A DNA stretch of 64,000 bases. Origin: Lama guanicoe (Eukaryota). Below, in pieces: positions 36,440 to 55,619 of this stretch. The notes beneath the pieces are model-generated. The model ran no database searches. It saw nothing but the letters and a program-made list of their open reading frames with translations, and was not told where the DNA came from. The first letter of the stretch is position 1. Every line of letters begins with the position of its first letter. The position numbers and the translations under genes are program-made. The DNA is taken from NCBI GenBank assembly GCA_013239625.1, contig MU057352.1, positions 30,511,277 through 30,575,276 on the forward strand. Direction: 5' to 3'.

Positions 36440-36604
36440 TGGCTGGGGGATTTCCTTCGGGATGATGGAAATATTCTAGAACAAGTTGGTCGTGATGGCT
36501 GTACAATGTCGTGAATATACTAAATGAAACTGAATAGTACTAAATGGTATACTTGGAAATGGTTAAAATGGTGAATTTTATGGGAATTTTACATCAACTT
36601 AAAA
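36440..36604 (+). mobile_element. L1MB/MC 3' end
   Basis: ggatgatggaaatattctagaac...gatggctgtacaatgtcgtgaatatactaaat...aaatggttaaaatggtgaattttatg. Confidence 0.8.
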
Positions 36605-36689
36605 GTCTTCTCAGAGATGGAATAAACTAAGTAACTACCTAGGACCCATCTGATTGAACTGTTGCCCTCCCAAAGGATCTCACATCATC

Positions 36690-36895
36690 AAATCCAAGAT
36701 CTTTGTCAGAGCCACAATCTTAGCTGTGGAATGGCTGAGAATATTGGAAGACCATGTACACCGACCAGGCTGTCTTGGTGGAACTGGCTTCAACTCTCAG
36801 CCTTAATGAGCCAATAGTAAGGTCTTGGTTTAATAACCACGTCAAATGGATGCAGGCACAACCCAGGCGGAGACGTCCTCTGAAAATCCCTAGTA
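36690..36895 (+). pseudogene. LEUTX: Processed pseudogene of LEUTX (PRD-class/ETCHbox homeobox), decayed
   Basis: Conceptual translation RATILAVEWLRIL/(frameshift)KTMYTDQAVLVELASTLSLNEPIVRSWFNNH-VKW aligns to my recollection of human LEUTX RPRTRFLSKQLTAL...KTMHPSLATMGKLASKLQLDLSVVKIWFKNQRAKW. The PRD-class intron between homeodomain codons 46/47 is absent; a helix-1 deletion causes a frameshift and R53 is lost. Confidence 0.75.
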
Positions 36896-37699
36896 ACTGG
36901 AAGGCACATGACGGATGCTGTCCTGTTCATCTTTTCCTCGGATCTGATTACTCTCAGGACTGAGGAACGATGCGGGAACCTACTTTCAGAATGTTAGTTA
37001 GCTCCCTTCCTGTCAGAGCACGACAAGCCCCTCTCGAAGGCCGTCCATTCCTCAGCAGTTAGTCTCATGACCTTCCACTCCTGAGTCTCTGACGATGCTG
37101 TCCCTTTGTCCTCTCCTGCCAGGTCCTCCAGGACTAATTCTCTGCGGCTTCTGTCATGGCTCCTTTCTGAAGAGAAACAGCTGCCCTTTAAGGCAGTGTC
37201 TCTGGGATGGCACGGATTTTCAGTCAGTCTGGAATTACAGTAGTCATAGCCGAGCTCAGGAGGCTGAGTCTGGCCGCAGTCCTTAAAGGCAGAAGCTGTG
37301 CGTGGAGAGCTATTCAGGAAGCAGTGGAGGACCAAGACAGATGTGCAAGGAGCACATTACGGAGTGCTGTTGGGACCGGTAACTGCGCGAAAGCTGGCCT
37401 ATGACACATTCACTGATGGAGAACACTGACCCTACCGAGAATTCTGACGTTGGGATAGTGGTTCAGAGCTATCTCACGGAGGGGGCGGGGGTGAGAGGGC
37501 CGACACCCTGGGACAGTGCATGACCTTGGGCAAAGAAGTTCTCAGCTGAAGCAACCTCAGAGTAGCAACAGCCCAGGGCTTTTCCTTCAGGTGGTGCGTC
37601 CCTCGGGAAAAGCAGCAGAAGGGGAGCCGCCCTCTGTCCCCGGAGAGGCATGTGGGCGGTGTCTGCCAGTGTCCGCGGCCCCCGACCCGCTCAGATCTA

Positions 37700-38145
37700 C
37701 CTGGTATAATTCCTAGGAGAAGCTCCCATAGGATCCCAGTGGGGTCTTTTCCTGGAAAGAGATAAGGAAGAAGAGAAGAAGGTTGGAGCTTCTCAGGCCA
37801 AAGAGTGAAAATTCTCTGTGGACGGGGCTTTGGAAGAGCTCCAAGCTGTCCCGACCCTTCCAGCGGCTTCCGGGCGGCGGGCCCTCACAGCTACCGCAGC
37901 TGGAAGGCTGTTGTGGTTTTCAGGGCTACCGTGAGGCTGGGGAGGCAGCACGGGCGTGGGGCAAGTTAAAATGCCCTGAAACCGTGTGACAACTGTTTTC
38001 TTCAATAAATGCTTCTCCGACTGTTGCAAGCATTTAGCTAATTTCAAGAATTCTATAAAAGTTTATTGCTGACACATCTCACCGGTGTTCTCGCTGCTTT
38101 TATGGAGTGAATTTTCAGAGGCTGGTCCTCGGCCATTGCAGTTCT
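37700..38145 (-). mobile_element. Probable ancient L1 5' end fragment
   Basis: ttcttcaataaatgcttctc...gttgcaagc...aatttcaagaattctataaaagttt...gtgttctcgctgcttttatggag resembles antisense L1M 5' ends. Confidence 0.4.
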
Positions 38146-55460: not shown

Positions 55461-55619
55461 GGAGGGTGTAGCTCAGTGGTGTAATGTGTGCTTAGCATGC
55501 ACAAGGTCCTGGGTTCAATCCTCAGTTCCTTCATTAAAAAAATAGATAGATAAACCTAATTACCTCCTCCCGCTTAAAAAAAAAAAGGAAAAAAAGAGAA
55601 AAGTGAAAAGATTTAAAAA
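55461..55619 (+). mobile_element. Vic-1-type tRNA-derived camelid SINE with target-site duplication
   Basis: A box (tagctcagtgg), B box (ggttcaatcc), aaacctaattacctcc tail and poly(A). 17-bp TSD aaaactgagct(t/c)acctt at 55440-55456 and 55620-55636. Confidence 0.9.

Follow-up and report, generated by a model that had tools for sequence, protein, structure and literature searches.

Published ETCHbox retrocopies and the guanaco locus

Retrocopies of ETCHbox homeobox genes are common, and the supplementary tables of two surveys list at least one of them for every species sampled (PMC8208926 Table S3a/b; PMC4904359 Table S1). The processed pseudogenes described in these sources are intronless, dispersed and disabled. 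For LEUTX, Lewin 2021 records one human retrocopy, on chromosome 4, and its Table S3a gives none for Camelus ferus (PMC8208926). Two further LEUTX pseudogenes, laEcab_LEUTXp of the horse and laEprz_LEUTXp of Przewalski's horse, are marked as reverse-transcribed in supplement Table S1 of PMC6258689.

In this work we studied a copy of LEUTX in a 64,000-nt stretch of the Lama guanicoe genome (contig MU057352.1, positions 30,511,277 to 30,575,276), hereafter called the window. Like the ETCHbox processed pseudogenes described in the two surveys, it is intronless, dispersed and disabled; unlike them, it is without its 3' portion and seems to predate its host order (PMC8208926; PMC4904359). ETCHbox retrocopies as such are already known and routine. 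The present camelid genome contains two LEUTX retrocopies, which are new for a lineage with none in the published table. In a literature search, with subscription papers outside its coverage, neither this locus nor the dating of LEUTX retrocopies turned up as the subject of a paper.

Position and structure of the LEUTX copy

The whole copy lies on the plus strand at 36645-36877 of the window (nhmmer E 4e-16 with a profile made from the live LEUTX gene and a second copy on contig C8970). It is composed of three consecutive pieces, all on the plus strand. The first corresponds to exon 1, including 5' UTR and the first codons (36645..36688); its best match in the parent locus adjoins an ATG and a GT donor, the alignment consists of ungapped blocks, and the nhmmer match also starts at 36645. 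It is followed by the exon-2 piece, which covers the homeodomain to codon 46 (36689..36822) as aligned to the LEUTX gene of the same genome, and by the start of exon 3 encoding helix 3 (36823..36877), where DNA similarity fades by 36860-36915. The alignment is gap-free across both junctions, so that intron 1 (3,173 nt) is gone at 36688..36689 and intron 2 (756 nt) is gone at 36822..36823, between homeodomain codons 46 and 47.

The initial annotation had reported a homeodomain reading with a helix-3 WF.N motif and no break at codon 46/47, and had taken it for a processed LEUTX pseudogene. Both statements were borne out. The plus-strand frame from 36748 translates as KTMYTDQAVLVELASTLSLNEPIVRSWFNNH-VKW, with W48 at 36826; the six frames of the window contain three WF.N motifs, helix 3 of the copy among them. 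The Pfam Homeodomain match (E 4.9e-4, 20.3 bits) falls short of the curated cut-off, 22.9, and the 58 PDB matches are mostly homeodomains. Spliced exon 2 plus exon 3 of the own-genome LEUTX aligned to the copy with a DNA score of 3574, a value reached by none of 200 shuffles (maximum 1923), against 1884 for the unspliced gene; 69 of 108 columns are identical and the junction at 36822|36823 is ungapped. The copy is found near KCNK9 on C55226 and the parent gene on C1236, which means that it was dispersed from the parental locus. With introns removed at two exact parental junctions, dispersal and disabling changes, it is a processed pseudogene. As to its extent, previously given as 36690..36895, the place was right; the copy begins some 45 nt earlier on its 5' side, where it also contains exon-1 sequence with a further junction, and the end is near 36860-36915.

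Beyond this end, the window contains no match to the Leutx domain, the 3' UTR or the rest of the mRNA; an nhmmer search that omitted a short stretch beside the copy gave E 2.7 at best. Since the Leutx domain is missing from the window, the locus is a LEUTX-derived fragment and not a LEUTX gene. No A-run of six or more was found within 1.5 kb of the copy, the 3' end of the mRNA being missing, and no target-site duplication was seen; without a 3' boundary such a duplication cannot be defined. We also considered a twin-priming inversion, by which the lost 3' portion would lie to the left of the copy in minus orientation. It gave one weak match (score 1705, equalled by one of 60 shuffles, in one of eight tests), which was not repeated with the second copy or with nhmmer, and it was rejected.

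Several other elements were noted in the window. Immediately 5' of the copy lies an old interspersed repeat (36443-36539), which we take to resemble an L1M 3' end; it is 69% identical to L039, the TPRX locus at C6946:2134013 (E 6e-7). Another old repeat at 37794-38137 is 62% identical to L056 (E 1e-18), and the only Rfam match is a tRNA-like one at 55462-55533 (35.8 bits), possibly a SINE head. An ARGFX-like motif near 37398 was dropped, as ARGFX and its retrocopies scored no more than 2150 over 36501-37700.

Parent gene and family assignment

The helix-3 pattern has one exact match genome-wide, at C1236:1877447, within the parent LEUTX gene. This live camelid gene occupies C1236:1873300-1877850, and its exon order and junction positions match those of the copy. 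Its exon 3 is 96% identical to LEUTX of Camelus bactrianus, and in its residues it agrees with alpaca LEUTX as given in the Katayama supplement (PMC6258689), so that the host is a camelid. The contig sequence gave exon 2 (152 nt) and intron 2. For exon 1, the best match to the upstream piece of the copy within 26 kb upstream of exon 2 was at C1236:1873252-1873353, 3,173 nt before exon 2; we infer that the ATG-bearing stretch with its GT donor is exon 1, and this model yields MAEKP, the camelid start given in PMC6258689. The live gene and the copy are 64% identical in DNA over the homeobox, and the derived states R24, N27, I38, I45 and Q52 of the live gene are all absent from the copy.

Most direct searches did not retrieve this relationship. 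When 36600-37520 was searched as DNA against the own genome, the locus itself was the only match, a 54-aa protein search of the same genome returned HOX/PDX-type genes only (E>0.2), and the homology of the copy to LEUTX escaped blastn, which may be a reason why surveys overlooked the copy. A homologue search with the protein fragment gave nothing. The representative-sequence search retrieved repeat-rich unrelated proteins and the Atlas search generic homeodomain clusters.

The comparison with LEUTX, DPRX, ARGFX, TPRX and CRX that the initial annotation had proposed gave LEUTX as the best family, in line with its assignment. In DNA scores against spliced homeoboxes of the same genome, the second LEUTX copy reached 4347, LEUTX 3574, TPRX 2337, ARGFX 2166, CRX 1654, DUX-like 1430 and DPRX 1135, with shuffle maxima of about 1450-1590. 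The names of the five non-LEUTX genes follow from characteristic motifs, from the human sequences in the Maeso supplement (PMC4904359) and from contig arrangement. Placement of the copy on ARGFX, TPRX, DPRX or CRX was rejected whenever these genes were included in a run (p-AU <=0.03). A profile built from the two LEUTX copies only had the live exon 2 as its sole match in 440 kb around LEUTX (E 0.021). As judged from these alignments, the family is LEUTX among LEUTX, ARGFX, TPRX, CRX, DPRX and DUX-like, PARGFX being outside the panel.

Decay of the copy

The reading frame is disrupted at several points. The start codon is replaced by ACA (36682-36684). The exon-2 part has lost a net 4 nt in the N-terminal arm and 14 nt after 36747, at the end of helix 1 (18 nt in sum); both losses are frameshifts and two stops lie between them. 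P26 is changed to T at 36760-36762. The exon-3 part carries T47S, K50N (36832-36834), H52, V54 and W56, and codon 53 (R53) has been deleted, 3 nt being lost between 36840 and 36841. Codons 17-18, read as E17/D18, are ambiguous, as their bases could equally be codons 21-23 owing to a repeat at the deletion; these residues were dropped as ancestral states and the placement described below was rerun without both codons.

Position 50 is N in the copy and K in all 34 live LEUTX proteins compared and in the second copy. By itself N50 is not a killing change, because elephant LEUTX2 carries it in the supplement of PMC6258689. A residual ATG frame of 69 codons starts from homeodomain M24 (36754..36963, plus strand); it is without the N-terminal arm and helix 1, could not yield a whole homeodomain and shows no sign of use. 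With the ATG lost, two frameshifts, stops, codon 53 deleted and the Leutx domain missing, the copy is dead as a protein, and the helix-1 deletion, K50N and loss of R53 pointed out earlier are all as described.

Second LEUTX copy and other homeobox copies in the genome

A search with LEUTX exon 3 revealed a second retrocopy on the minus strand of C8970 (~1512140-1513010). This old copy is near full length and intronless; it extends over the coding region, Leutx domain included, into the 3' UTR, of which a part is present, with 477 of 733 columns identical to LEUTX. The window copy scores higher against it than against live LEUTX. It is located about 88 kb from an intronless transketolase gene, and a POU-homeobox gene lies on the same contig; we take these to be TKTL2 and POU4F2, respectively, which would correspond to human 4q31-32. 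The human position of POU4F2 is given in PMC2211742. The chromosome match with the human chromosome 4 copy is suggestive only; the second copy may be the same insertion as that copy and the horse pseudogene.

Other ETCHbox sequences were encountered in the same genome. Three ARGFX copies (C2563:7278272, C5752:10887254 and C4002:61598) have K2P distances of 0.013, 0.12 and 0.165, respectively, from the gene on C8262, and the C2563 copy has no intron at codon 46/47 and its homeodomain frame is open. Two TPRX genes that flank CRX (C6946:2134013 and 2168733) have identical homeodomains, as published gene conversion predicts. A further TPRX homeobox at C6341:2121761-2121925 is intronless, has an open frame and is near-identical to both of them; Lewin Table S3a has no TPRX retrocopy for Camelus ferus (PMC8208926). 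DPRX of this genome (C6946:5787660-5788600) has R52, and human DPRX has H52 in the Maeso supplement (PMC4904359). A lone helix-3 motif WFKNQRAKC on the minus strand at C12516:12125632, with no exon 2 in 10 kb, is perhaps another decayed homeobox fragment.

Genomic surroundings

The nearest gene identified is KCNK9, although the flanks were sampled for long frames only and a nearer gene with short exons is possible. A KCNK9 coding exon lies on the minus strand about 7 kb past the end of the window (L054:6777-7811). The copy is on the opposite strand, 3' of KCNK9 and about 34 kb from its coding end. In the human genome KCNK9 lies at 8q24.3.

Age of the copy

The initial annotation regarded the copy as a record of an ancestral LEUTX of the camelid lineage. 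This source is disfavoured by both the residue states and the placement, which point to an older one. For the residue tally we used 34 named live LEUTX proteins out of 78 matches (20 laurasiatherian, 13 euarchontogliran and one sloth), with near-duplicate, partial, unnamed, retro-like and non-LEUTX rows left out. L38 of the copy occurs in none of the 20 laurasiatherian proteins, in 10 of the 13 euarchontogliran ones and in the sloth; the corresponding counts for V45 are 0/20, 7/13 and 1/1, and H52 is absent from all 33 boreoeutherian proteins and present in the sloth. H52 is also found in both elephant LEUTX genes in the supplement of PMC6258689, and walrus LEUTX has V45 in the published alignment (PMC6258689). 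The second copy likewise has L38 and H52, and codon 2 is TCA (Ser) in both camelid copies versus GCA in live LEUTX. I44 and W56 of the copy are common to camel LEUTX, and the sloth has both too.

The copy was then placed on a fixed tree of 28 LEUTX rows, none of them afrotherian, with about 47 usable codons. The boreoeutherian stem was the best attachment in all seven single-copy runs (p-AU 0.93-0.96), a result to be read with the caveat that, when a protein model is applied to a pseudogene, its long branch can drift rootward. The p-AU of the camel branch was 0.028 and 0.036 (JTT) and 0.070 (LG) with E17/D18 counted and 0.058-0.11 in the fairer set without these ambiguous codons; at 0.05 this branch was rejected in two of the seven runs, and the artiodactyl stem in none of them for the window copy alone (p-AU 0.056-0.097). 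When both camelid copies were placed together, with E17/D18 counted, the camel (0.004) and artiodactyl (0.029) attachments were both rejected. In a free tree of 58 columns only, the copy fell in an unresolved LEUTX polytomy outside the laurasiatherian (non-mole) clade with 93/97 support.

At the DNA level, the K2P distance of the copy over 134 anchored sites is 0.42 to live LEUTX and 0.44 to the second copy, versus 0.013-0.165 for the three ARGFX retrocopies. DNA distances over these sites were 0.42-0.54 with wide limits, and the own branch of the copy was 0.16, with a 95% range of 0.06-0.28 that is too wide for dating.

Taken together, the locus is best read, with a probability of about 0.6, as a dead, 3'-incomplete, intron-free copy of LEUTX mRNA, likely made by LINE-1 in germ-line or early embryonic cells before the laurasiatherian orders split. 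L1 is the usual copier of retrocopies. A spliced LEUTX mRNA would have been reverse-transcribed in such cells and inserted, and its 3' part would have been lost by a later deletion, the 3' two-thirds of the mRNA being absent from the window. The L1 machinery, the 3' deletion, the age and the lack of a present function are the inferred parts of this explanation. Expression of the parent in heritable cells (germline or cleavage-stage), also suggested previously, is supported by the usual reasoning for a retrocopy.

Alternative origins and possible function

An older source is preferred over the camelid lineage because of the states at L38, V45 and H52 and the placement; an age greater than that of the camelids is thus favoured by these comparisons, not proven. 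If the copy were of camelid or artiodactyl age, its old-looking residues would be chance reversals during decay. Such an origin agrees with the single-copy runs, five of seven of which leave the camel branch and all seven the artiodactyl stem unrejected at 0.05, with W56, common to camel alone among the 20 laurasiatherians, and with V54 and S47 (one base from T47), which fit the laurasiatherian T47/V54 pair of the published alignment (PMC6258689). However, T47 and V54 are also found outside Laurasiatheria, independent returns to the outgroup state would be required at codons 2, 38, 45 and 52, and those at 2, 38 and 52 would be needed again in the second copy. Identity to camel LEUTX (18/47) is below that to marmot (21/47), and the joint two-copy placement speaks against both attachments. 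We therefore regard this age as rather improbable. Descent from another ETCHbox gene, chiefly PARGFX, which was outside the panel and whose retrocopies are reported in PMC8208926 for pig, whales, horse and primates, appears very unlikely, since the copy aligns to the LEUTX exon-1 UTR, has its best alignment with a second copy bearing a full Leutx domain and shows the LEUTX states V54 and KW at 55-56, and since ARGFX, a derivative of PARGFX, was rejected in placement.

More room is left for a lost paralogue. In the alignment of PMC6258689, the horse pseudogenes share with the copy Ser at codon 2, I7, L38, P43, V45, H52 and W56, at which the live horse gene differs; unlike the copy, they are near full length and keep P26 and K50, with 20 of 47 homeodomain positions matching by eye. 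Helix 3 of elephant LEUTX2 (S47-W-F-N50-N-H52..V54-K-W) is that of the copy, although both African elephant genes, LEUTX and LEUTX2, are intact and intron-bearing in that source. The lead of the elephant proteins of PMC6258689 is small: 23 (LEUTX2) and 22 (LEUTX) of 47 positions by eye, against 21 for marmot, the best fetched protein, and 18 for camel, and the N50 match is probably convergent because the second camelid copy has K50. Both camelid copies and the horse pseudogene thus have states in common with elephant LEUTX that are absent from the live horse and camel genes. The simplest reading is that the copies sample the LEUTX stem and that the elephant kept old states; P43, T26 and S39, which current data do not show as ancestral, still allow for a paralogue. 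One could imagine that an 'elephant-type' LEUTX, expressed in totipotent or germ cells, existed in early boreoeutherians beside the ordinary gene and survives in that group solely as retrocopies, its fossils being the horse pseudogene and both camelid copies. P43 occurs in the window copy and the horse pseudogene and in 0/34 live proteins (the second copy has CTG, one step from a Pro codon), and both camelid copies have T26 (0/34) and S39 (1/34). The second copy opens with (V)SAKPR and contains DPPEPPGAEQP and PWAT, near elephant LEUTX of PMC6258689 by eye, and in the segment TYLGVSGLPWATVP it is similar to the horse pseudogene; lost ETCHbox loci are inferred in Maeso 2016 (PMC4904359). Against this, the horse pseudogene has P26 and not T26, a profile from the two copies found no remnant in 440 kb around LEUTX, and the genome-wide Leutx-domain pattern matches LEUTX and the second copy only. 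Three-way site patterns gave no excess sharing between the two copies (48 vs 41 and 60), the exon-1 UTR and 3' UTR are similar to those of the live LEUTX locus, and such matches can arise by parallel decay, a few parallel changes being expected by chance over ~100 sites. A lost paralogue is therefore possible but doubtful, and a LEUTX stem source is retained here.

It had also been supposed that antisense read-through could yield small RNAs against the parent gene. A KCNK9 read-through transcript would indeed be antisense to the copy, and pseudogene siRNAs are made in mouse oocytes (PMC13399003). However, the longest exact match between the copy and parent LEUTX is 10 nt, the best 21-, 22- and 26-mers have 4, 4 and 5 mismatches, and the read-through would have to span the distance from the KCNK9 coding end. 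The likeness to the mouse-oocyte endo-siRNA loci of PMC13399003 is limited to a possible antisense geometry; the copy has no long complementarity and its host is not a rodent. Regulation of LEUTX by such RNAs is unsupported and its likelihood close to nil, and the copy likely has no present function.

Significance for the LEUTX family

The value of the copy is that of a fossil of an early LEUTX form, which matters only as a dated sample. If a lost paralogue did exist, elephant LEUTX and the LEUTX of human and cattle would be hidden paralogues, and the ETCHbox family would gain an extinct member. Presence or absence of the copy across orders could serve as an insertion marker. If the copy is as old as its residues suggest, it would be direct evidence that, close to the boreoeutherian base, LEUTX was expressed in heritable cells, and would provide an in-genome outgroup for ordering the recognition-helix changes (H52 to Q, T47/V54) of this fast-evolving embryo-activation factor.
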